A stretch of 64,000 bases of DNA from Pseudomonas sp. UBA6562. Lineage in GTDB: Bacteria > Pseudomonadota > Gammaproteobacteria > Pseudomonadales > Pseudomonadaceae. The stretch covers positions 769,327-833,326 of the forward strand of contig NZ_DJJS01000007.1 in NCBI RefSeq assembly GCF_002434265.1, in the 5' to 3' direction. Below the pieces are notes generated by a model. It was not told where the DNA came from. It worked only from the letters and a program-made list of their open reading frames with translations, and ran no database searches. How positions within the stretch are numbered: position 1 is the stretch's first letter; every line of letters begins with the position of its first letter. The position numbers were made by a program, and so were the translations under genes. Shown one piece after another: positions 5,453 through 56,711 of the stretch.

Positions 5453-6877
5453 ATGCTCGAACTACGTCCAGACTCCGCTACGCCGTTGGTCAACCAGATC
5501 ATCGACGGCCTGCGCGAGCTGATCGACGCGCACACCCTCAAACCGGGCGCCAAGGTGCCCTCGATCCGGGCGTTCGCGGCGACCTATTCGGTCAGCACCT
5601 TCACCGTGGTCGAGGCCTACGACCGCCTTGTGGCCCAGGGTGTGTTGATCAGCCGTGGCAACGCCGGCTTCTTCGTCAGCCGCGTCAGCGGCGAGCGCCT
5701 CGACGGCCCCACGCGCGACACCGACGCCGCGCGCCCCTCGTTCAATGCCGAGTGGTATCTGCAACAGATCTTCGAAACCCGCCAGCTGCCGTTCAAACCC
5801 GGTTGCGGCTGGCTGCCCAACGACTGGATGTATGAAGACGGCCTGCGCCGCGGTCTGCGCCAGGTAGCTGGGAGCCCCCTGGAGCTGTCGGGTTATGGCG
5901 ACCCCCTGGGGCTGCCGGAACTGCGCGCCGTGACCGCGCAGAACCTGCAACAGGAACTGTCGATCGTCGCCAACCCGGCGCAGCTGCTGCTCACCCACGG
6001 TGCCAGCCAGGCGCTGGACCTGGCCGTGCGCACGCTGGTCCGCCCAGGCGATGTGGTGCTGGTGGACGACCCTGGTTACCCCAACCTGATGAGCATCCTG
6101 CGCTTCCAGGGCGCCACGCTGGTCGGCGTGCCGCGCACGCCCAACGGCTACGACCTCGACCAGCTCGAACGGCTGCTGGCCGTGCACCGGCCCACGGCCT
6201 TCTTCACCCAGCCGCACCTGCACAGCCCGACGTGCTCGCGCACGCCGTTGGCGCAACTGCACCGGCTCCTGCAACTGGCCAGCCAGCACGGTTTCCGGCT
6301 GATCGAGAACAACCTCTACGCCGACATGATCGCCGAGCCGCAGCCCTGCCTGACCAGCCTCGACCACTTGCAGCAGGTGGTGTACGTGGGCAGCTATTCC
6401 AAGAGCATCTCGCCCAACGTGCGGGTGGGTTACCTGTTGGCCAACCCGCAGCTGATCCAGCAGCTGTTGACCCTGAAGATGCGCTCGGGGCTGACCACCT
6501 CGCAGGTGATGGAGCGCGTGGTCTATGCCGCGATCATCGACGGGCGCTGGCGCAAGCACCTCAAGCGCTTGCGCCAGCGGTTGGCCCAGGCCCATCAAGA
6601 CGTCGGCGCACGCCTGCAACGGCTGGGCTTCGAGCTGTTCGTCGAGTCCGACGAGGGCATGTACATCTGGACCCGCCACCCGCAATTGCCGGACAGCGCG
6701 GTGCTGCTCGACGAGGCGCTGAGCCAGGGCATGATGCTGGGCCCGGGGCAGCTGTTCATGGTCGACGCGCAGCCCACGGGCTGGATGCGTTTCAATGTGG
6801 CGTTCAGTACGGCGCCGCAGCTGTGGGAGCTGTTCGAAGGGTTAATGGCCAAGCATGTGCGCCTACCGGGGCGCTGA
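5453..6877 (+). CDS. MocR/PdxR-type regulator (GntR wHTH fused to a fold-type I aminotransferase-like domain)
   Basis: N-terminal GntR HTH (VPSIRAFAATYSVSTFTVVEAYDRLVAQG). C-terminal aminotransferase-like domain with YVGSYSKSISP (PLP-lysine context). Confidence 0.85.
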   Translation: MLELRPDSATPLVNQIIDGLRELIDAHTLKPGAKVPSIRAFAATYSVSTFTVVEAYDRLVAQGVLISRGNAGFFVSRVSGERLDGPTRDTDAARPSFNAEWYLQQIFETRQLPFKPGCGWLPNDWMYEDGLRRGLRQVAGSPLELSGYGDPLGLPELRAVTAQNLQQELSIVANPAQLLLTHGASQALDLAVRTLVRPGDVVLVDDPGYPNLMSILRFQGATLVGVPRTPNGYDLDQLERLLAVHRPTAFFTQPHLHSPTCSRTPLAQLHRLLQLASQHGFRLIENNLYADMIAEPQPCLTSLDHLQQVVYVGSYSKSISPNVRVGYLLANPQLIQQLLTLKMRSGLTTSQVMERVVYAAIIDGRWRKHLKRLRQRLAQAHQDVGARLQRLGFELFVESDEGMYIWTRHPQLPDSAVLLDEALSQGMMLGPGQLFMVDAQPTGWMRFNVAFSTAPQLWELFEGLMAKHVRLPGR

Positions 6878-7363
6878 GGGCGCGGGTTCCTGCGAGCCGG
6901 CCAGTACCTCGGCGCGGGTCGTGACGTGTCGCAGATGCTGGACCCACAAGGCCTGGCCCGTCTGCCCCGAGCGGTCCAGCCAGGAGCCGATGCTCAGGTC
7001 GGTGACCAGCGTCGGCGTCAACCCGGCATCGAACAAGGCAAAGCCTGCCGCCAGCAGACCGCTGTCGGCCCCTACTCCGCACACCAGCACGCGCTCGGGC
7101 GCCAGCTCGCGCAAGTAGTCCAGCGCCTCGGCCGGCAGGCCATAGCCATGCTTGACGAACACCCGATCCGCTTCGTGCAGGCTTTCGTCGCTACGCGCCG
7201 GGTGCCAGCCCGCCTGGCGCTGGAAAGGCGTGCGTGCCTCATCGTGCAAGGTCAGCGTCGCCAGCGTCAGCAACCGCGCCGAGAACGCCCGCACGCCATC
7301 GACCAGCCATTCGGGCGGTTCGAAAGTGGCCTGGACGTCATTGATCAGCAGCACCTGGCGCAT
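6863..7363 (-). CDS. Isochorismatase-like (cysteine hydrolase superfamily) protein, apparently lacking the nucleophile Cys
   Basis: Start set at MRQVLLINDVQ. Pattern VFVKHGYG...RVLVCGVGADSGLL fits the family, but Ser replaces the usual Cys. Confidence 0.55.
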   Translation of the reverse strand: MRQVLLINDVQATFEPPEWLVDGVRAFSARLLTLATLTLHDEARTPFQRQAGWHPARSDESLHEADRVFVKHGYGLPAEALDYLRELAPERVLVCGVGADSGLLAAGFALFDAGLTPTLVTDLSIGSWLDRSGQTGQALWVQHLRHVTTRAEVLAGSQEPAPSAPR

Positions 7364-7628
7364 GCGCCCTCCCCGTGCGACGGCAAAAAGCGCGCAGTAT
7401 AGCCAGCCGGCGGCCGCCCCTGCACGGTGCCAGAGCGATTTCGCCCAGGCTGCGCCTGCACCCATGAAACATTGTTCATGGACCTGCGATGCCCTGGCTG
7501 TGGGGCCCACGGCATTAGCCAAGGCCTGCGCACCGCCAGCGTCTTGAGCCCCAGGGGCGGCTTGCGTAGCATCCGCACGCTCGCGTCCCAGGCGCCGCCG
7601 CCCGCCAGCCCGCTATCCAGAGCCCGTC

Positions 7629-9509
7629 ATGCCCCAGCCCATCCCCCTCAAGGACCACGAACGCGAAAAATCGCTGGTCAATCGCCGCTTGCTGGTTTGC
7701 GCGGGGCTGACCGTGGCCTTGGTCGGCGCTCTGGTCGGGCGCCTGTACGTACTGCAGGTGATCCAGCACGACAAGCAAAGCGCCGTGTCGGAGAACAACC
7801 GCGTGCACATGCTGCCGATTCCGCCCGAGCGCGGCCTGATCTACGACCGCAACGGCGTGGTCCTGGCCGACAACCGCCCCAGCTTCAACCTGACCATGAC
7901 CCGCGAGCGCGCAGGCAACGTGGCCCAGGTGCTGGACCAGCTCACCGAAGTGCTGGGCCTGGACGCCGAAGACCGCCAGCAGTTCGACAAGGACCTGCGC
8001 CGCGGTCGCAAGCCTTTCGAGCCGGTGACCCTGATGGTGGGGCTGAGCGAGCAGCAGATCGCCCACATCGCGGTGAACCAGTTCCGCCTGCCGGGGCTGG
8101 AAGTGGAACCGCAGTTCATCCGCGAATACCCCCTGGCCGAACATTTCGCCCACTCGGTGGGCTATGTGGGGCGGATCAACGAGCGTGAAGCCAAGACCCT
8201 CGACCCCACCGAATACCGCGGCACCGAGTCGATCGGCAAGACCGGCATCGAGCACTTCTATGAGGACCGCCTGCACGGCCACGTCGGCTACGAAGAAGTG
8301 GAAACCAACGCCCAGGGCCGGGTGATGCGCGTGCTCAACCACCGCGACCCGACGCCGGGCGAAGACATCGTGCTGAGCCTGGACGCGCACCTGCAACAGG
8401 CGGCCGAACACGCCCTGGGCGAGCGCCGTGGCGCGGTGGTGGCGCTGGACCCGGCCAACGGCGACATCCTGGCGATGGTCAGCAACCCCAGCTTCGACCC
8501 CAACCTGTTCGTCAAGGGCATCAGCTTCAAGCAGTACGCCGCCCTGCGCGACTCCATCGACCGCCCGCTGTTCAACCGTGTGCTGCGCGGGCTCTATGCA
8601 CCGGGCTCGACGATCAAGCCGGAAGTCGCCATCGCGGGCCTGGACAGCGGCGTGATCAGCCCCGCCAGCCGGGTGTTCGACCCCGGTTACTACGAACTGC
8701 CCAACTACGCCCACAAGTACCGCAACTGGAACCGCAGCGGCGACGGCTGGGTGGATCTGTCCGCCGCGATCATGCGCTCCAATGACACCTTCTTCTACGA
8801 CCTGGCGCACAAGCTGGGCATCGACCGCCTGCACGACTACATGGCCGAATTCGGCCTCGGGCAGAAGGTGTCGCTGGACCTGTTCGAGGAAGCGGCCGGG
8901 CTCATGCCCTCGGCGCAGTGGAAGCGTGCCACCCGGCGCCAGGCCTGGTTCCCGGGCGAGACGCTGATCCTCGGCATCGGCCAGGGCTACATGCAGGTAA
9001 CGCCGCTGCAACTGGCCCAGGCCACCAGCCTGCTGGCCAGCAAGGGCGTGTGGCACCGGCCGCACCTGGCGATGAGCGTGGGCGGCCAGACGCCGGTCGA
9101 CCCCAACCCCATGCCCGACATCGTGTTGCGCGACGCGCATGCCTGGGACGAGGTCAACCAGGGCATGCAACGGGTGATGCACGACCCGCGCGGCATCGCC
9201 CGTGCTTCCGCAGCGGGCGCCCAATACCGCATCGCCGGCAAGAGCGGCACCGCGCAGGTGGTGGCGATCCGTCAGGGCGAGCGCTACAACCGTGAGAAAA
9301 CCCTCGAGCGCCATCGCGACAACGCGTTGTTCGTCGGCTTCGCCCCGGCCGAGGCGCCGCGCATCGTGGTCGCGGTGATGATCGAGAACGGCGAGGCCGG
9401 CGGCCGCGTGGCGGGCCCGGTGGTGCGCGAGGTGATGGACGCCTGGCTGCTGGATGACCAGGGCCATCTGAAAGCGGCGACGACTGCGGCCAAACCCCCG
9501 CACGCGTGA
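7629..9509 (+). CDS. mrdA: Penicillin-binding protein 2 (peptidoglycan D,D-transpeptidase, MrdA family)
   Basis: 626 aa with N-terminal TM anchor. Motifs STIK, SND (IMRSNDTFF) and KSGT. No rodA follows. Confidence 0.85.
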   Translation: MPQPIPLKDHEREKSLVNRRLLVCAGLTVALVGALVGRLYVLQVIQHDKQSAVSENNRVHMLPIPPERGLIYDRNGVVLADNRPSFNLTMTRERAGNVAQVLDQLTEVLGLDAEDRQQFDKDLRRGRKPFEPVTLMVGLSEQQIAHIAVNQFRLPGLEVEPQFIREYPLAEHFAHSVGYVGRINEREAKTLDPTEYRGTESIGKTGIEHFYEDRLHGHVGYEEVETNAQGRVMRVLNHRDPTPGEDIVLSLDAHLQQAAEHALGERRGAVVALDPANGDILAMVSNPSFDPNLFVKGISFKQYAALRDSIDRPLFNRVLRGLYAPGSTIKPEVAIAGLDSGVISPASRVFDPGYYELPNYAHKYRNWNRSGDGWVDLSAAIMRSNDTFFYDLAHKLGIDRLHDYMAEFGLGQKVSLDLFEEAAGLMPSAQWKRATRRQAWFPGETLILGIGQGYMQVTPLQLAQATSLLASKGVWHRPHLAMSVGGQTPVDPNPMPDIVLRDAHAWDEVNQGMQRVMHDPRGIARASAAGAQYRIAGKSGTAQVVAIRQGERYNREKTLERHRDNALFVGFAPAEAPRIVVAVMIENGEAGGRVAGPVVREVMDAWLLDDQGHLKAATTAAKPPHA

Positions 9510-10750: not shown

Positions 10751-10872
10751 GTCAGGCCCAGGTGCGCTTGACGCGAATTTGCACGGATGATGACGATATT
10801 AGCGTCCATACAAGTGGAACAGTGGCAATTTGGGTGCAATACTCTCGCACCTGATTGTCAGAGACATCACCC

Positions 10873-12003
10873 ATGCGTGTATTCCTTAGTCACTTTCGAG
10901 ACCGCGCATTGGAAGTGATGGCTTCGGGCACTTCCATTCAGGGCCTGCTCGGCGAATTCGCACTGGCCTTGCAGGTCGAAGTCCCCGATGCCGTGGTCGG
11001 CATCCTGGTCCTGGACACGCCCGGCAATACGTTTCGCCACGCCATATTCCCCGCCATGCCCACGACCTTCACCACCGCATTGATCGGCAACCCGATCAGC
11101 GCGGGCCGCGGTTCCTGTAGCCATGCCGTACGCACCGGCAAGACCGTCGAAGTGCCCGATGTGGCGTCGGACGAGCGCTTTTCCGAGCAGTGGCGCGACG
11201 AGTTTCGCAAGCACGATCTGACCTCGTTGATTTCGGTACCGGCCATCGGCACAGACGGCGAGGTACATGGATCGCTCGCAGTCATACATCCCATGGACAT
11301 GGGCCTGACCAAGGAGCAACGGGTGTTCCTGTCGGGCGCGGCGGGCTTGTGCGCCCTGTTCTGCCGTTACAGCCGCACCCAGGAGTCGCAGACTTTGCTG
11401 ATCGGTGAGCTTGAACACCGCATGCGCAATCTGTTCTCGACGCTTTCCGGAGTGGCGGTGCTGACCCTCAGAAACTACCCGGAGCCCGAGCAGTTCCGGT
11501 ACATGCTCGATCAGCGCATGGTGATGATGCAGCGCGCCCATGCCCTGGCGCTGTCCCCGGCGGAAATGCCGCTGGCCTCGCTGCTGAGCGAGGTCCTGTC
11601 TCCGTACAGCGACCGTTACCGGATCCGTTTCGACGGCCCCGCCATTTTGTTGGCCAAGGAGGCAGCGGCGGCCTTCGCCATGGTGGTCCATGAACTGGGT
11701 ACCAACGCCGCGAAATACGGCGCGCTCTCGCAACCGGGGGGCGAGTTGCACATCAGCTGGCAAACCGAACAACGCTCGCCCGACGATGCGCACGACGGCT
11801 TCAGCTTGAGCTGGCAGGAACTCAACGGGCCCGTAGTGCTAGCGCCGTCGCGCAAAGGCTACGGAACGCTGATGGTCAACGGGGCGCTGCGCAATGCGTT
11901 CAACGGCTCGGCCGCCTTCACTTACGAAGCGGCAGGGTTCAATTGCCTGATCAGCGCGCCGTTCAACGAGCGCCTCGGGCGGGCAGAGCCACATCATGAC
12001 TGA
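10873..12003 (+). CDS. GAF domain-containing HWE/HisKA2-family sensor histidine kinase (soluble)
   Basis: H-box ELEHRMRNLFSTLSG, N-box HELGTNAAKYGALS and SWQELNGP motif, with an N-terminal GAF-like domain. No TM segment and no adjacent response regulator. Confidence 0.8.
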   Translation: MRVFLSHFRDRALEVMASGTSIQGLLGEFALALQVEVPDAVVGILVLDTPGNTFRHAIFPAMPTTFTTALIGNPISAGRGSCSHAVRTGKTVEVPDVASDERFSEQWRDEFRKHDLTSLISVPAIGTDGEVHGSLAVIHPMDMGLTKEQRVFLSGAAGLCALFCRYSRTQESQTLLIGELEHRMRNLFSTLSGVAVLTLRNYPEPEQFRYMLDQRMVMMQRAHALALSPAEMPLASLLSEVLSPYSDRYRIRFDGPAILLAKEAAAAFAMVVHELGTNAAKYGALSQPGGELHISWQTEQRSPDDAHDGFSLSWQELNGPVVLAPSRKGYGTLMVNGALRNAFNGSAAFTYEAAGFNCLISAPFNERLGRAEPHHD

Positions 12004-44456: not shown

Positions 44457-44874
44457 GGTCGCGCACGCTATACCGAACGACGCCCCAGATGGACAGCTCG
44501 TCGCCTTCCATGATGTAGCGCGGCGGGTAGGAACGGTTTTCCGATTTGAGTATGACCACCCCATTGCGACGGTGAAGTCGTTTACATACAGGTTCGCCGT
44601 TGATGGCGGCGATCACAATGTCGCCATGCTCGGCCTCACGTCCTCGGTCGACGATCACCAGGTCACCGGAGTAAATCCCCGCGCCCTGCATGCTGTCACC
44701 TTCGATCTTGGCCAAGTACACCTGAGGCGCACGGAGCTCGAACAACTCGTCTAGCGAGATATGCTGCTCGATGTGATCGGCTGCTGGCGAAGGGAAGCCC
44801 GCAGGGATGAGGAAGGCGTAAACCGGGTGACGTTCGGTGCCGTCGGTTGGCTTACCCAGGTAGGTGATTGACAT
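44446..44874 (-). CDS. umuD: LexA-like S24 peptidase, polymerase V accessory subunit
   Basis: 142 aa with Ser-Lys dyad context ([10 protein letters not shown] ... CKRL). 11-nt overlap with umuC. Confidence 0.9.
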
Positions 44875-50781: not shown

Positions 50782-51051
50782 TTATCTGGCCTCGGATGCG
50801 AGTGTCCGAGCTCGCTCCACTCCCCAGGCCAAAGCTTTGGTGACGGTTTCTCCTGGACGTCTGCTGTACGCCTCTTCGCGGATCGTTCTTCCTGAAGGCG
50901 CGTACACGCCAATGAACATCTGCGTTTCTCCAGTCCTTGATAATCGAGCTTGGACGTCAAAATTGGTCCCATCAGAAAGCATTTCTTCGTGCGTTCTGCT
51001 GTGAATCCTGACATCTGCCCAATTCCAATATTTATTTCCTCGTACTCGCAT
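50782..51051 (-). CDS. Hypothetical protein (89 aa)
   Basis: ATG 51051 preceded by a strong GGGAGGTG. No motif recognised. Confidence 0.5.
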   Translation of the reverse strand: MRVRGNKYWNWADVRIHSRTHEEMLSDGTNFDVQARLSRTGETQMFIGVYAPSGRTIREEAYSRRPGETVTKALAWGVERARTLASEAR

Positions 51052-51429
51052 AATCACCTCCCTATGCCTGTGCCGGTCCGACACGTCTACAGGACACGCG
51101 ACAAAATACGTCGAGTCAAGCGGTGCAGATCACACCATGACTATAAGGTCACAAATAGGTCGCCGCTGAAATGACGGTTCCGCTTACCAAATTTTGCTCT
51201 CGCTTGCTGCCGCGATAGGCCGGCAGAGGAATCCGCGTATTCTGCGCCACGCACACCGTATGGCCGGCTTGCGCAGGCTGGCTCAAGGTCCGCTTAACCC
51301 TACAAGCACTTTCGTCTTTCCACCGAGTAGAGAATGGCAAGGGTTTTCTCAAGGCATGGAAAAAGCCCGCGCTAGGCGGGCCACACGAAAGACGCGTTAT
51401 GATCGGGTCATCTCACTGGGAGTGACTTC

Positions 51430-51753
51430 ATGAAAGGACTATGGATGGGAATGACGCTCGCCTTGGCGTTGGGCGGGTGCGGGACCGTACGCACGGTGTC
51501 CAACGAGTCAAAAGCCGTGGACGATCTGGCGAAATGGCAGACTCATTGCCATACGATTCCGCGGGCGTATAGTGGCGTTGCTTATCAGTTCTGCAATTTG
51601 AACGGGCCTCCGCGAACAGGTCCGCATTGGGCTACATTCCCGATCCTGCTCGACATGGCAGCGTCGGGAGTTGTCGACACCGTTGTTCTTCCTTACACCG
51701 GCTATCAGCAGTATAAGCAAGGCAATGTGCCAATTCGTAGGCTGGAATACTGA
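51430..51753 (+). CDS. YceK/YidQ-family lipoprotein
   Basis: Lipobox LALGGCGT. Motifs PRAYSGVAYQF and LLDMAASGVVDTVVLPYT are typical of the family. Confidence 0.7.
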   Translation: MKGLWMGMTLALALGGCGTVRTVSNESKAVDDLAKWQTHCHTIPRAYSGVAYQFCNLNGPPRTGPHWATFPILLDMAASGVVDTVVLPYTGYQQYKQGNVPIRRLEY

Positions 51754-51907: not shown

Positions 51908-52165
51908 TTAAAACCCCGCGGGCGCGGGCGTCTGCCTCTTCATTGGATGGCACAGCAGGTCTTGTAGCGGTGTCGCAGGGGTAACGCGCGTACCAAGCGC
52001 CGAGTCGCCATCGGACCTGGCCTTCGTCTCGACCTGCACCGCCGCGTTGATGTTGCCCAGTGGGGTGAGCAAGTCGTCTATCCGCTGTTTTTCCGCCGCC
52101 AACTCGTCGCCTTGCTGGGTGACGGTAACGCCGGACGAGTCTATAGCCTTACCTGACGCTGCAGC
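51908..52165 (-). pseudogene. C-terminal fragment of a phage tail-fibre-like protein
   Basis: Sequence ..AAEKQRIDDLLTPLGNINAAVQVETKARSDGDSALGTRV.. resembles tail-fibre/host-specificity repeats. A hairpin terminator overlaps the stop. The 5' part is missing and abuts an integrase fragment. Confidence 0.35.
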
Positions 52166-52177
52166 CGCAAGTGCTCG

Positions 52178-52486
52178 GTGACCTTGACGCCGTTCGTATT
52201 CCCGCCTTCCAAGAACGTCGAGTATGTGAAGCAGGCCTCCGATCTGCACAAGCAGTGGGTACCGGCGCTGGGTGAGCTGGGGATTCGACGCCGTCCCCCG
52301 TATAACTGCCGTCACACCTATGCGACAATACGCTTAATGTCTGGTCTGAATCCCGCATTTATCGCCCAACAGCTGGGTCACAGCGTTCGAATGCTGTTGT
52401 CGACCTATGCCCGTTGGCTTAACTCAAGCTCCGATTGGAGCGAGCTGGAAAAACTCAAAATTGGTATCAAATCGGTATCAGGTTGA
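52178..52486 (+). pseudogene. 3' fragment of a tyrosine recombinase (phage integrase) gene
   Basis: Only the last ~100 codons remain. Catalytic region YNCRHTYATIRLMSGLNPAFIAQQLGHSVRMLLSTYARWL (R, H-x-x-R context, Tyr) is present. The N-terminal ~250 aa are absent. Confidence 0.75.
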
Positions 52487-52740
52487 GATCCGGCCCTGTA
52501 AGTGACTGATAGGTTAGCCCTTTGATCTCTACCGCCAACATCACCATGCACTATCTCATGAGTGATCGCAGGTGAATGAGTGTTGATCCTGTTGGGCTAC
52601 AGAACGCGGCTCCCCTCTCCGCACCATATGCAGTGGTCCGTCGAATGGTCCCAGCCGCCATCAGAGGCTTGATGCCGATTCGGCATAACACGCTAAATTT
52701 TGTGCTCTGATCTAGGTTATTATCCACAATGCCAAAATGG

Positions 52741-52775
52741 CAAAAGCCGCCACATTAGTCGGTAAGCGGCTTTTG
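52741..52775. terminator. Bidirectional rho-independent terminator-like hairpin
   Basis: AAAAGCCGC-n15-GCGGCTTTT with T-runs on both strands. Confidence 0.5.
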
Positions 52776-52898
52776 CCTTATGTCATTTCGCGCTACTAAG
52801 TACCAAGCTTCATGGCCGTATTTCTATGCGTCAAAGATACGCTCCAAGTTTTTCACTCGACGGTGGCAGCAGCAAACCCAATTGCGTAACCCGCCGTA

Positions 52899-53114
52899 TC
52901 AATGCTTTGTGATCGCCTGGAGGCCGTAGGCGTAAAGCTGGTAGTCCGTCACCGCCTGGTAGGCTGACTCGGCGAGCACGCGCAGGCGCTCGACCTGCTC
53001 TGCCGGTTCGCAGGCATCTTGGGCCTCGTTGTACCGGCGCAACGCTGCAGTGGCCTCCAAGATCAGCGGCTCTCCTGCATCAGCCAGTCCTCGAATCGTT
53101 CGCTTTATAGTCAC
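52899..53114 (-). CDS. Small helical protein (53-71 aa depending on start), hypothetical; partner of receiver protein RR1
   Basis: GC3-biased frame. Only GTG (53114) or an internal TTG after GGAGAG is available as a start. Loose similarity to the 54396-54608 product (A-x-L/I-x-R-Y ... ESA-Y/F). Confidence 0.4.
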   Translation of the reverse strand: MTIKRTIRGLADAGEPLILEATAALRRYNEAQDACEPAEQVERLRVLAESAYQAVTDYQLYAYGLQAITKH

Positions 53115-53224
53115 CCCAGCACGCCTATTGTCAGAGTGTAGTAGCCTTCATGGAAAGCAGCATGTGAAGTAATCAGCTTTCCATAGTCATCATTCAAGCT
53201 GAACAAAGCTAACTTACCAAAGCG

Positions 53225-53602
53225 CTATATGGCTTTCAAAACAGCACCGGTTAATTGCACTAGCGCCCATGGCTTCGGCAGGAAGTGTATCTGACTAGAA
53301 AGCTTTCGATGAGCATCTATGTAACCTGTCGTAAGAATGAAGGGAATATGCGGATAACGGCCCGCCAACATTTCCGCAAGCTCAGCACCATCCAGCTGAC
53401 CAGGTACTGTCAGATCAGCAACTACTAGACCAATATCAACTGACGCACCCATAGCATATATCAGAGCATCATCAGCAGTCGCAAATTCGACTACTTCAAA
53501 ATTAAGCTCTCGAATTGCATCAACCATTAAGCTGCGCAATAGATCATCATCCTCAACCACTACAATGATTTTCTTTGAGGCCATCATGCTGTCTTGCGTC
53601 AT
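53225..53602 (-). CDS. Single-domain response regulator (receiver only), FAT-GUY-like
   Basis: VVVEDDD, phospho-acceptor VVADLTVPG, PFILTTGY (variant of PFxFATGY) and FLPKPW. No output domain. Confidence 0.8.
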   Translation of the reverse strand: MTQDSMMASKKIIVVVEDDDLLRSLMVDAIRELNFEVVEFATADDALIYAMGASVDIGLVVADLTVPGQLDGAELAEMLAGRYPHIPFILTTGYIDAHRKLSSQIHFLPKPWALVQLTGAVLKAI

Positions 53603-53653
53603 TAAAGTCGCTCATTGGAATAAAGCTTCTGTAGACGCGCATTTTGATACAAA

Positions 53654-53800
53654 TCATTCATGCTTGCCACTCAATTCCGTCAAAGCGTCGTACTCCTTAG
53701 CGCATTGCTGTACAGATATCCGGGCTCTTTCATACGCTTTCGCCAGCTCTCCCGCTCGAGCATCAGCCCGTGCGAGCAGCAAGGATAGCGCCACCTACGC
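53654..53800 (-). pseudogene. Relic of the 3' end of an Rz-type i-spanin gene
   Basis: 53730-53779 matches 54732-54781 at 48/50 nt. Encodes ..ALSLLLARADARAGELAKAYERARISVQQCAKEYDALTELSGKHE*. In-frame stops lie immediately upstream. Confidence 0.65.
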
Positions 53801-54006
53801 TCACCTCGAGAACGTCGTCCTTGCGTGGGCCTGTAAGGCAACCGCTGCTGAATGGCGGAAGCGGGGGCTATAAATGAAATTTGTTGTACAGCCTGCGCTC
53901 GAAACGGCTAATTGTTGTACAAAATAGACCGCTCATCTTTTATCAGGAACTCGGCTCTGATAAGCGCTCACTATCACTGATTAGGCCTATAACTGGTGTG
54001 GTGAAT

Positions 54007-54375
54007 ATGAAACGGGTTTTGATCGTGGAAGACGAACCAATGCTTTTAGAGCTCCTCGTCACGATCATCGACGAAATGGGTTTCACCACAACGACAGCTG
54101 CTACTGTCGATGATGGAATCGAGCTGCTAGGTGCCCATGCTTGGGCAATGGTCGTAACGGACGTTAGAACGCCTGGACGCTCAGATGGCTGGGATCTGGC
54201 ATGGACTGCTCATCACCAATGGCCGAGCCTGGCTGTGATTGTGACTAGTGGCGGCAATGCCCACTTTGGGAAGCCACTGCCCTCTTCGGCTGTATTCCTT
54301 GCCAAACCATGGTCCATAGAACAGATGACATCACTAGTTCGAAGCCGCGCTGGAGGCTTCGCTTCCTCCCCTTAG
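54007..54375 (+). CDS. Single-domain response regulator (receiver only)
   Basis: LIVEDEP, phospho-acceptor VVTDVRTPG, VTSGG and FLAKPW. 122 aa, paralog of RR1. Start at ATG 54007. Confidence 0.8.
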   Translation: MKRVLIVEDEPMLLELLVTIIDEMGFTTTTAATVDDGIELLGAHAWAMVVTDVRTPGRSDGWDLAWTAHHQWPSLAVIVTSGGNAHFGKPLPSSAVFLAKPWSIEQMTSLVRSRAGGFASSP

Positions 54376-54395
54376 TCGTTTAGGGTCGACTGCTA

Positions 54396-54608
54396 TCACT
54401 GTACAGCCAACCGCGCCAACTCTAGCTCCCGAAAAGCGCTCTCAATCTCAGTTCGCAAAGTCTTCAAGATTGATTCGGAGCTGCCAAAGTCTCGTGCGCG
54501 GTGATACAAGTCCACTGCTTTTGAGGCCCGATCAACGCTACGCAGGTACCTTTCGATAGCCTCATCATAAGCTCGGAGAGGCATTTTTCCTGAGGGCTCG
54601 TCTGCCAT
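54396..54608 (-). CDS. Small helical protein (62-70 aa), hypothetical; lies 47 nt 3' of Rz on the same strand
   Basis: ORF MADEPSGKMPLRAYDEAIERYLRSVD.... The internal ATG (54584) has an AGGA Shine-Dalgarno. Convergent with RR2. Confidence 0.5.
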   Translation of the reverse strand: MADEPSGKMPLRAYDEAIERYLRSVDRASKAVDLYHRARDFGSSESILKTLRTEIESAFRELELARLAVQ

Positions 54609-54655: not shown

Positions 54656-55168
54656 TCAATGGTTGAGGCTAGCCCCTCTCGTTAGCTGATCGTACTCGTT
54701 CGAGCACTGCTGACCCGCTATCCGGGCTTGGTCATACGCTTTCGCCAACTCTCCCGCTCGAGCATCAGCCCGTGTGAGCAGGTCGGAGAGCACCATAGCG
54801 GCGCGGGTGGCTGCCTGGCCTCGGGCGACAGCGACGGTATCCGGGCCGGGGCAACTGACGGCGGCGGCGAACTGATCGGCGTCGTGCTGCAGCCGCTCGC
54901 CAGCAGCATCGGCGCCAGTAGCGCCAGCGTCAGCCACTTGGTGTTGTTTGTATGCATGGGCTCTCGTCTCTTCCTGCGCCTTAGCGCGTTGTTGTTCTTC
55001 CTCGCGGGCGGCCCGCTCGCCCACGGCTTCGGCCAGTCGGACGCTACCGTCGCGCTGCGCCGATGCGGCCAGAGCATCGCTGCGCTCTACCGACCGGCCG
55101 TGCTGGTAGGCGCCCCAGTACGACGCCAGCACTAGGGTCAGCAGGCCCAGCCGCACCGGCCAGGTCAT
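54656..55168 (-). CDS. Rz-type i-spanin (DUF2514-like lysis protein)
   Basis: N-terminal signal-anchor MTWPVRLGLLTLVLASYWGAY followed by a coiled-coil-rich periplasmic domain. ATGA-coupled to the endolysin gene. Confidence 0.75.
   Translation of the reverse strand: MTWPVRLGLLTLVLASYWGAYQHGRSVERSDALAASAQRDGSVRLAEAVGERAAREEEQQRAKAQEETRAHAYKQHQVADAGATGADAAGERLQHDADQFAAAVSCPGPDTVAVARGQAATRAAMVLSDLLTRADARAGELAKAYDQARIAGQQCSNEYDQLTRGASLNH
54718..54957 (-). CDS. Rz1-type o-spanin lipoprotein embedded out of frame within Rz
   Basis: MHTNNTKWLTLALLAPMLLASGC lipobox followed by a Pro-rich mature part (TTPISSPPPSVAPARIPSLSPEARQPPAP). Fully nested in the Rz gene. Confidence 0.65.
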   Translation of the reverse strand: MHTNNTKWLTLALLAPMLLASGCSTTPISSPPPSVAPARIPSLSPEARQPPAPLWCSPTCSHGLMLERESWRKRMTKPG

Positions 55169-55608
55169 GCCAGCGCCCGCCGCACGCCTTCATCGATCAC
55201 CGCAGCCGAGTACGGATTGCTGCCGTTCTCATGAGCGATGATGCCGGCCACCATGCCGCGCAGCGTGGCCAGACTCTTGATGTCGATCATTGTCGTGGGA
55301 TCCACGCCGATGCGCGTGGCCACCGCGCGGGCGTAGGCCTGAGTGTCGTTCTCATTGCTCGGCGCCCAGCGGTTGATGGTTTCGAGCACGGTGTCGATGC
55401 CCTTGCCGCCGACGCCAGGCATACCGTCTTTGCTGCGGTAGTTGATCAGCAGCTTGCCTAAGGCGCGGATGCCGTTCTCGGGCGAGTCGAACCGGGCGAA
55501 GCGCGGCTTGGCCACACCTTCCTCAAGGCCCAACTGGCCTACCCAGTCGTTGCGTGGGTTGTAGTCGATATTGCCGGGGTTGTTGTTGCGGATGCCGCGT
55601 GCGGTCAT
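55165..55608 (-). CDS. Putative endolysin / peptidoglycan hydrolase (phage P5-like family)
   Basis: 147 aa beginning MTARGIRNNNPGNIDYNPRNDWVGQ, recalled from Pseudomonas phage/tailocin lytic proteins. Sits between gpD and Rz. Confidence 0.55.
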   Translation of the reverse strand: MTARGIRNNNPGNIDYNPRNDWVGQLGLEEGVAKPRFARFDSPENGIRALGKLLINYRSKDGMPGVGGKGIDTVLETINRWAPSNENDTQAYARAVATRIGVDPTTMIDIKSLATLRGMVAGIIAHENGSNPYSAAVIDEGVRRALA

Positions 55609-55667: not shown

Positions 55668-56711
55668 TCATAGGTCCACGACCTTGAGGGGTTTTGTCTC
55701 TTTCTTTTTCTTGCCGGCGGCTTTTGCTTTGCCCTTCTTGCCACCGTTGCATTCCACAGACGTGGTCCAGCCGGACTGGGTAAATACCTGTTCCACGCCG
55801 TCCACTAGATACTCACCGTCCAGCCCGGGCTTAAAGCCCTCGGCATTGATCGACCGTTCAGCGAACAGATCGGCACGCCCGGCCATTTCGAGGCGTACAG
55901 CGGCAGTGCTGCGGTTGAATGCGGCCAGACGCGCCTTAGCGGCCTGCTCGGCAGCGCTCTTGTTGGGGTAGGTGTGTCGATCGGTATGCACCGGCGGCAG
56001 GCTGTCCGGGGCGTCATCGTTGGCCAGCTCCACGACCTGCAGCTTTCCGGTCTTCGGGTCTTGGTGCTGGGTCTTCACGGCCTTCTGCGTGTTGCGATCG
56101 CCAAGCCGGAATTGGTACCGACTCACGTCGGCTCTGTTGATCGTCACCACCGACAGCGTCTTGCCGGACGCGCTCTGGCCACCTTGGCGGGGCATCACCA
56201 GCAGTTTGCTTTCGGCCACCTTGGCCGTGCAGTCGTACTGCCTGGCCAGGCGGGTGATGAAGTTAAAATCGGACTCATTGCGCTGGTCGATTCGCTCGAC
56301 CTTGGTACCCACCGAACACACCGGCTCCCAGCCGTTGCGCTTGGCGATATCGTTGACGATCTGCGACAAGGGCGTGCCTTCCCAGCTACCGCTACGCACG
56401 GTCTTACCGCTGCCGCGCATGTCGCTTGCCTTGCCGCGTATAACGATCGTGTCAGGCGGCCCGCTTACCTCCACCTCGTCGACCCTATAGGCGCCCATCC
56501 GGGTAAGCGCCTGGCCCACATAGCCCATCATCACCGTGACGTTGCTTCCGCGCGAAGGCAGGGCAACGGCTTGGTCCCGATCGTCAATTCGCAGCTCGAA
56601 TTCGTCCGAGTCCATCCCGGGCTTGTCCGAGATACGCAGCATCAGCAGTCGGTCGTTGATCAGCGTGGTGATGTCCCGGCCGTCTGCAATGATCCGGTAG
56701 GTAGGTTGCAT
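55668..56711 (-). CDS. Phage late control gene D protein (P2 gpD family)
   Basis: 347 aa. N-terminus MQPTYRIIADGRDIT...RLLMLRISDKPGMDSDEFELRIDD is typical of gpD. Confidence 0.85.
   Translation of the reverse strand: MQPTYRIIADGRDITTLINDRLLMLRISDKPGMDSDEFELRIDDRDQAVALPSRGSNVTVMMGYVGQALTRMGAYRVDEVEVSGPPDTIVIRGKASDMRGSGKTVRSGSWEGTPLSQIVNDIAKRNGWEPVCSVGTKVERIDQRNESDFNFITRLARQYDCTAKVAESKLLVMPRQGGQSASGKTLSVVTINRADVSRYQFRLGDRNTQKAVKTQHQDPKTGKLQVVELANDDAPDSLPPVHTDRHTYPNKSAAEQAAKARLAAFNRSTAAVRLEMAGRADLFAERSINAEGFKPGLDGEYLVDGVEQVFTQSGWTTSVECNGGKKGKAKAAGKKKKETKPLKVVDL

Follow-up and report, generated by a model that had tools for sequence, protein, structure and literature searches.

What raises a question at the locus described here is the presence of two-component signalling parts behind the lysis genes of a phage tail. 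In Pseudomonas sp. UBA6562 an R-type tail cluster ends in a lysis cassette, and behind the spanin gene Rz lie two receiver-only response regulators (RR1 and RR2), two small helical proteins (small1 and small2) and a relic of the Rz 3' end. An earlier note on this DNA, a stretch of 64 kilobases (kb) referred to below as the window, suggested as a speculation that each receiver and its small neighbour form a dedicated module, a phosphate sink or partner switch present in two paralogous copies, linking the two-component signalling of the host to the moment of prophage or tailocin lysis, or else a moron with another role. The comparison with related elements leads to a partly different answer. The region 52.7–54.7 kb of the window is rather probably an accessory (moron or cargo) zone behind the spanin genes of an R-type tail cluster in Pseudomonas, and the explanation that is favoured here on balance, although with some reserve, is a kinase-less remnant of phosphorelay cargo in that zone. 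Two kinds of passenger would meet there, namely a family of hairpin proteins of about 70 amino acids (aa), which comprises phrog_9523 and an s2 subtype, and receiver-only phosphorylatable proteins.

Receivers RR1 and RR2 and their relatives

RR1 and RR2 match the Pfam family Response_reg (PF00072) with 45.8 and 45.5 bits, respectively, at a cut-off of 30.2, and no further domain is found in either protein. The acidic pocket, phospho-acceptor Asp, T/S and Lys that the earlier note had read in these single-domain receivers are borne out, since E17, D18, D63, T91, K110, P111 and W112 (RR1 numbering) are invariant in an alignment of 11 sequences of the RR1 and RR2 families. The two proteins share 37% amino acid sequence identity over 113 aa (E 2e-17), close to the one third estimated by eye. 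By sequence comparison they diverged long ago as paralogues, and each has orthologues of its own; those of RR2 are found in L007–L009, L088, L172, L173, L174, L224 and L087 (L numbers denote the loci compared). This degree of identity and the separate orthologues therefore argue against a local duplication in the window.

The closest relatives of both receivers are either Rec domains of hybrid kinases or Rec-only intermediaries. The top NCBIfam match of RR1 is the CckA receiver (5e-14), with CpdR also among the best, and its top PDB match is 6TNE, the Rec domain of CckA (6.8e-10). Meanwhile RR2 matches best CpdR in NCBIfam (2.9e-9) and, in the PDB, a Rec domain that belongs to a PAS hybrid kinase (2.3e-9). 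CckA-Rec, MrrA, SdrG and Sma0114 are phosphotransfer intermediaries, or hubs linking kinases, which, together with CpdR, constitute a class with a FATGUY-like motif, PFxFATG[G/Y] (or FxSGY), at β4 and the next loop (Brüderlin et al. 2023, PMC9981736). Like members of this class, RR1 and RR2 consist of a single receiver domain with a complete phospho-site. At β4 and the following loop RR1 carries PFILTTGY, in which 6 of the 8 motif positions agree while L replaces F and T replaces A. The corresponding region reads P[FVI]I[LI]T[TS]G[YF] in the RR1 family, whereas VIVTSGG of RR2 is a poorer fit, its IVTSGG falling short of the full motif. Unlike proven members, both receivers score far under the NCBIfam equivalog cut-offs (38.3 and 36.9 against 180 bits for CpdR, NF046022; 51 against 1000 for CckA), match the PhyR model at receiver level only (33 bits against a cut-off of 240), and are encoded in a phage-tail cluster instead of a stress or cell-cycle locus. 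RR1 and RR2 thus seem to resemble the CckA-Rec/FATGUY-like class at class level, with no membership of the SdrG or CpdR families shown. The earlier note was right about the PFILTTGY motif of RR1, and the class to which it points is retained; the further step, to an SdrG-type regulator of alphaproteobacterial stress signalling, is not supported by the PhyR score or by the HisKA type of the kinase linked with the relatives in the closest loci. The gammaproteobacterial host is not known to have a PhyR-NepR-EcfG system.

A metagenome scan with the RR1 family yielded only relatives of at most 40% identity in unrelated contexts, and a viral scan with RR1 yielded none. The closest relatives in JGI metagenomes (~40% identical) adjoin a GAF-PAS-HisKA_2 kinase (L094).

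In a minority of related elements the receivers behave as mobile passengers of the lysis end, as the earlier note had supposed of its module. In L088, L090, L091 and L092 a relative of RR1 (54–77% identical) comes immediately 3' of an intact Rz, and in L172/L183, L173, L174 and L224 a relative of RR2 (43–60% identical) is placed behind Rz or another spanin cassette. The order of the genes varies considerably (s1, s2 and s3 stand for genes of the small family): Lys-Rz/Rz1-RR1-RR2(convergent)-small-x117 in L088, Lys-Rz-RR1 in L090, Rz-RR1-93-aa ORF (open reading frame)-s2-like-integrase fragment in L091, Rz-RR1-s2-like-PAS protein in L092 and Rz-RR1-like in L228. Among the loci with RR2 relatives, the order is Rz-s2-s1-RR2(convergent)-s3 in L172/L183, Rz-RRL9-s2-s1-RR2(convergent)-s3-x117 in L173 and Rz-RRL9(convergent)-s1-RR2(convergent)-s1 in L224, and L174 has a convergent RR1-like/RR2-like pair after a different cassette of a GH19 endolysin and a spanin. 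RRL9 is a third receiver-only family, which takes the place of RR1 in L009 and is found behind Rz in L173, L224 and L226 (Rz-RRL9(convergent)-s1). The gene after RR1 differs by locus, being small1, the 93-aa ORF, an s2-like gene or RR2, whereas RR2-type genes always converge with the upstream gene and diverge from a gene of the small family that lies 5' of them.

In an Rz-anchored survey of IMG/VR, which covered 72 proviruses with sequence beyond Rz, receiver genes were found after Rz in four and a hybrid kinase in a fifth (L195), ~7% together. The kinase of L195, which lies next to a small gene and has the architecture PAS-PAS-HisKA-HATPase-Rec, is homologous to the hybrid kinases of L076 and L087 (E 4e-93). 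In L076 (P. putida KH-21-134) the hybrid kinase adjoins a small1 gene, and in L087, located on the chromosome of Pseudomonas sp. S75, the order is an RR1-like gene (58% identical), a 736-aa kinase of this architecture, a 60-aa ORF and an RR2-like gene. The L087 cassette lies next to IS66 remnants, with no phage genes. Since RR1-like and RR2-like genes flank a hybrid kinase in this one chromosome, RR1 and RR2 are a co-travelling, kinase-associated pair, of which the window carries a kinase-less set; in agreement with the earlier note, no kinase or output domain was detected within 52.3–55.2 kb by the ORF list and a Pfam scan.

The same neighbours bear on another possibility, that the genes are anti-phage or superinfection-exclusion cargo, parts of an undescribed defence system in a prophage hot spot. 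Prophage ends are known as hot spots of defence genes, and in L005 (P. fulva) PIN and CAP12-PCTIR TIR genes (6374–8703) follow the small1 homologue in the same zone; RR2 also shows a weak PADLOC match to the N-terminus of SduA (E 2e-4). However, none of the PADLOC matches is convincing, given that the receivers reach 14–19 bits against the receiver-like N-terminal region of SduA only and the small proteins match nothing. The island encodes no nuclease, TIR, protease or other effector, and at other loci the receivers are associated with a gene for a sensor kinase rather than for an effector. A defence role is regarded as very unlikely.

The window does encode a kinase of another type, with GAF and HWE_HK domains and without a receiver (10855–12003, plus strand), 41 kb from the island. 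The earlier note named it as a candidate partner of the receivers; its identity was confirmed, but it shows no relationship to the PAS hybrid kinase found with the relatives of RR1 and RR2. Given the ~40%-identical relatives beside a HisKA_2 kinase, it may at most be considered a candidate partner of the receivers.

The two-helix family behind Rz

Both small proteins are modelled by AlphaFold2 as helical hairpins of the same topology (small1, helices 4–33 and 38–62, pLDDT 72; small2, helices 11–40 and 45–69, pLDDT 89.5), as expected from the all-helical prediction of the earlier note. The loose pattern that the note saw in both proved to be real remote homology: BLASTP gives an E-value of 0.011 only, yet hhalign aligns the two with 77% probability (E 1.9e-5, 38 columns in register), and a protein of L092 (585–776) bridges the two groups by matching both. 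Hence small1 and small2 are remote homologues within one superfamily. Relatives of small1 fall into 47 clusters at 90% and 250 clusters at 50% identity; the exhaustive profile search that gave the 250 clusters retrieved essentially only stand-alone proteins of 45–130 aa and no informative domain fusion. Meanwhile small2 is nearly an orphan, with one further homologue cluster in 5.8 billion and no direct PHROG match, while small1 does match phrog_9523. Members recognised by the hidden Markov model (HMM) of the s2 subtype are those of the window, L007/L008, L009, L091, L092, L172 and L173, all of them receiver-bearing loci, and a third subtype, s3, adjoins relatives of RR2.

Searches for described relatives were negative. 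Neither protein has a Pfam or NCBIfam match, the small1-family profile finds nothing among PDB sequences, and Foldseek with the small1 model against PDB and BFVD gives none at E ≤ 0.001, generic helical hairpins only. A tblastn search with both proteins against 50,697 phage records gave no match. Two candidate functions were rejected on the basis of residues. A role as minimal histidine phosphotransfer proteins is contradicted by the His of the "YH" pair, which is Asn in small1 and Leu in s3, the Tyr alone being invariant, and regulators of the Mu Com type would have a Cys zinc-finger motif, which is absent.

The GTDB genomes were surveyed at one genome per species, and receivers were sought with an iterated receiver HMM. 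Relatives of small1 occur at 77 Pseudomonas loci, mostly of the putida group and often in tandem copies; at least 13 of these loci have them directly after a detectable Rz/Rz1, and in none of the 77 does a receiver gene occupy the slot between Rz and the small gene. The independent, Rz-anchored survey of the 72 IMG/VR proviruses gave a consistent picture, with a same-strand small-family gene downstream of Rz in 57 of them, starting not more than 100 nucleotides (nt) past the Rz stop codon in 34, and with no receivers in >90% of the proviruses that carry the family. Judged by both surveys, these phage and tailocin ends regularly carry a member of the small family, which by default has no response regulator as a partner. 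As its members usually start <100 nt past the Rz stop on the same strand, they are probably co-transcribed with the lysis genes.

Several other genes frequent the same zone. A small1 homologue follows Rz/Rz1 directly in L005 and L006, and in L001–L004 it comes after an intervening secreted protein of 124 aa. This protein, which has a signal peptide and no Pfam match, fills the slot between Rz and small1 in L001–L004 and L019 (~5570–5944), the slot held by RR1 or RRL9 elsewhere. In L001–L004 and L006 an SRAP (SOS-response-associated peptidase) gene (~6204–6869, minus strand) converges on the small1 homologue, their 3' ends overlapping by 7 nt. The x117 family (~110 aa, no Pfam match) stands regularly after small-family genes, as in L088 (7175–7528) and at more than 30 other loci.

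These distributions bear directly on the dedicated, duplicated module of receiver and helical protein by which the earlier note explained the locus. Some features of the gene order do suit it: the s2-type protein is confined to receiver-bearing loci and lies no more than two genes from a receiver in 7 of 7, RR2-type genes always diverge from a small-family gene, the RRL9 gene of L009 overlaps the start of small1 by 4 nt, and all these genes follow directly behind lysis genes. On the other hand, the small family does without receivers at 77 of 77 genome loci and in over nine tenths of the proviruses that carry it, and the gene that follows RR1 is not conserved. The two supposed modules are not even collinear. 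The first runs relic-RR1-small1, all on the minus strand, whereas in the second Rz and small2 lie on the minus strand and RR2 on the plus strand, convergent with them. What is left of the proposal of two paralogous modules is that the receivers are paralogous and the small proteins homologous; a conserved, duplicated unit of both is contradicted by order, strand and neighbours. In addition, nothing ties the genes to the control of holin, endolysin or spanin. The ability of such a module to explain the locus seems rather doubtful, and a low probability is assigned to it, although a role in lysis timing as such is possible.

Among known systems, the nearest analogy in position is provided by lambda-type morons after Rz/Rz1, such as bor, which are accessory genes at the end of the late operon, possibly with a promoter and terminator of their own. 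The product of bor is an outer-membrane lipoprotein; those of the window are predicted cytoplasmic signalling domains and helical hairpins. Sda and the Spo0E family are analogous to the small proteins by size, predicted two-helix hairpin and proximity to receivers or kinases only. They differ in that no sequence or profile match and no significant Foldseek match connects them with the small proteins, most small-family members have no two-component neighbour, and small1 has Asn in place of the semi-conserved His. For the R-tailocins of Pseudomonas, cargo at the ends of conserved tail clusters is established (Ghequire et al. 2015, PMC4684702), and as in those clusters the window has accessory genes of foreign composition at the cluster end and "Russian-doll" Rz/Rz1 spanins. 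The cargo described in that paper consists of bacteriocins, toxins, RulAB and metabolic genes; the term response regulator has no occurrence in it, and the small helical post-spanin family is not described there. Literature searches on prophage-encoded receiver-only regulators returned nothing relevant.

Layout of the lysis end and the origin of the relic

The tail cluster runs on the minus strand in the order sheath, tube, tape measure, gpD (55668–56711) and terminal lysis cassette, and the features of the cassette and of the island are listed in the table. The annotation of UBA6562 includes RR1, RR2, Rz and endolysin, and small2 with the start given is absent from the protein collection searched. 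The intact Rz matches DUF2514 as a full-length i-spanin (150 bits, profile positions 7–160) with Rz1 embedded, and Rz1 homologues are likewise embedded within Rz at many loci. RR2 is convergent with small2, the stop codons being separated by 20 nt. The G+C content falls to 45–53% across the island as compared with 60–70% in the tail genes. The hairpin downstream of small1 was missed by the consensus terminator scan because of its loop length and was found by folding; it is probably the terminator of the minus-strand unit and possibly bidirectional. A search of Rfam found nothing in 51.5–55.5 kb at E ≤ 0.1.

Table. Lysis cassette, island and mosaic edge in the window (positions in nt; the features are ordered along the minus strand).
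Feature	Position	Strand	Observations
Endolysin of the tail-cluster lysis cassette	55165..55608	-	phrog_873, E 1.3e-60; NCBI name 'structural protein P5'
Intact Rz i-spanin	54656..55168	-	Pfam DUF2514, E 6.4e-44; phrog_312 Rz-like spanin, E 4.7e-35
Rz1 o-spanin lipoprotein, inside Rz in the +1 frame	54718..54957	-	ORF start MHTNNTKWLTLALLAPMLLASGC
small2, 70-aa two-helix protein, divergent s2 subtype	54396..54608	-	start 47 nt past the Rz stop
RR2, receiver-only response regulator	54007..54375	+	PF00072, E 9.6e-12
Relic of the Rz/Rz1 3' end	53654..53841	-	Rz part 53654-53794, Rz1 C-terminus to ~53841
RR1, receiver-only response regulator	53225..53602	-	PF00072, E 7.6e-12; G+C ~45%
small1, 69-71-aa two-helix protein, canonical phrog_9523 member	52899..53114	-	phrog_9523, E 4.4e-26
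Hairpin of 13+2 bp, then ATTTT (probable terminator)	52739..52777	-	perfect stem; 122 nt past the small1 stop
Tyrosine integrase C-terminal fragment, mosaic edge	52178..52486	+	PF00589, E 7e-4, below cut-off

The relic reported in the earlier note is genuine. Positions 53688–53793 are 83% identical to 54690–54795 of the intact Rz over 106 nt, and the 46-aa ORF of the relic corresponds to the last 40 positions of DUF2514 (122–161, E 1.4e-8). It is no evidence, however, that a module was copied. According to blastn, L007 is collinear with the window over 55070–53843 (Rz, small2, RR2 and the region upstream of it) at 85% identity and then jumps to 53109–52899, that is to small1; the stretch 53842–53110, holding the relic and RR1, is therefore an insertion or deletion within the intergenic region between RR2 and small1. 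L009 agrees with the window at the left junction and over the initial 52 nt of the relic, and then has RRL9 in place of RR1. In addition, the intact Rz end together with RR1 of L090/L091 aligns to 53793–53238 of the window at 79%. On this mosaic the relic is to all appearance a recombination scar: RR1 arrived together with the Rz 3' end, next to which it natively lies. The piece comprising the Rz 3' end and RR1, which is the native junction of RR1, would have entered the RR2–small1 intergenic region of an L007-like arrangement, and the presence of the relic would follow from that insertion. The Rz 3' end and the small genes seem to serve as shared homology, or a recombination anchor, between phage ends.

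The DNA downstream of the island is likewise composite and holds further relics. The integrase fragment of L091 (1398–1660), which lies downstream of the Rz-RR1 arrangement there, is 98.5% identical in nt sequence to 52563–52301 of the window, whereas identity is only 80% in the RR1 region next to it, which points to mosaic ancestry. A 135-aa ORF (51908–52315, minus strand) is a fragment of GpJ, the lambda-like tail-tip/host-specificity protein (phmmer matches it to giant GpJ ORFs in L005, L010, L214 and others at 1e-17 to 1e-9), and indicates that a second tail cluster, of the F type, has left a remnant downstream of the island. Farther on, a DUF1375 (YceK-like) lipoprotein gene (51430–51753, plus strand) has close homologues in 8 IMG/VR Pseudomonas proviruses, where they lie between tail and lysis genes, and represents another recurrent moron. 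Homologues of a 100-aa ORF without a Pfam match (50782–51084, minus strand) occur in 16 phage-end loci (E 1e-37 to 1e-18), including the receiver-bearing L173 and L174. In L010 (Pseudomonas sp. 1P02AnB) the sequence just past the small1 homologue (6371–6606) matches 44501–44736 of the window, ~8 kb further along, and given this match the whole of 44.7–52.9 kb may be accessory DNA. Synteny of the window flank with L001 was considered and rejected, as there is no DNA match beyond endolysin and Rz.

A region of this kind invites the suspicion that the receivers are decaying leftovers of prophage-end recombination with no present function. The Rz relic, the integrase fragment and the GpJ fragment mark the region as a mosaic, the kinase is missing, and small1 has lost its canonical start: the ATG, which in L007 follows a GGGGA Shine-Dalgarno sequence, is ATA in the window (53106–53114), and the start left is a GTG two codons upstream with no obvious Shine-Dalgarno sequence. 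Against decay, the reading frames are intact and the phospho-site residues invariant. The pairwise ratios of nonsynonymous to synonymous substitution rates (dN/dS) are 0.09–0.11 for RR2, 0.12–0.19 for RR1, 0–0.075 for small1 and 0.19–0.25 for small2 (against L007 and L009), in comparison with 0.73 for the true relic against the intact Rz. Judged by these ratios, RR1, RR2, small1 and small2 are all under purifying selection (0–0.25) and the relic is not. Present uselessness of the receivers is thus held to be quite improbable.

Possible action of the cargo and its meaning

For the kinase-less remnant of phosphorelay cargo, the following picture may be drawn. Two-component parts (RR1-type, RR2-type and RRL9 receivers and the kinase) would travel behind Rz in variable and often incomplete sets. 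As 47 nt without a terminator separate Rz from small2, the latter would be read through from the late (lysis) operon, while RR2 would be transcribed from a promoter of its own on the opposite strand, and RR1 and small1 would form one unit ending at the hairpin 52739–52777. RR1 and RR2 might take up phosphate in trans from a hybrid kinase of the host or from a phosphotransferase/Hpt protein and might then alter host signalling in the role of phospho-shuttles, sinks or protein-binding switches. The s2-type hairpin would be the best candidate for a direct partner of the receivers.

Several observations weigh against this explanation and must be borne in mind. The kinase partner is absent from the whole window, the promoter scan found no sigma-70-like promoters in 52.3–55.3 kb, and the canonical ATG of small1 is gone. 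For the most part the receiver-bearing loci are short contigs of metagenomes from related Pseudomonas, so that not all instances are independent, and the co-occurrence of s2 with receivers comprises 7 loci that were partly retrieved via those same genes. Moreover, either the chromosomal kinase cassette of L087 or the phage-end cargo may have come first.

A bolder form of the same idea would make the cargo a portable, reduced phosphorelay, with receivers of up to three families, an s2 partner and, when complete, a PAS hybrid kinase, which plugs into host kinase signalling; phosphorylation of the receivers would gate lysis or tailocin timing or lysogenic conversion, and the two-helix proteins would be a new kind of receiver- or kinase-binding connector. 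So specific a scheme is put forward as a speculation that is unlikely to hold in full.

Moron cargo of phages and tailocins is of a known kind; what is new here is the post-spanin two-helix family and the recurrent, incomplete phosphorelay cargo. Neither two-component parts as recurrent cargo behind spanin genes nor a two-helix family after Rz/Rz1 in ~80% of these Pseudomonas elements has been described in the literature searched. For the annotation of Pseudomonas tail clusters there is a gain in any case, as a post-Rz family of small proteins is delimited and the Rz 3' end is recognised as a recombination anchor. If it is true that the receivers tap host kinases, phages and tailocins would rewire, or listen to, the signalling of their hosts with minimal, kinase-less parts.

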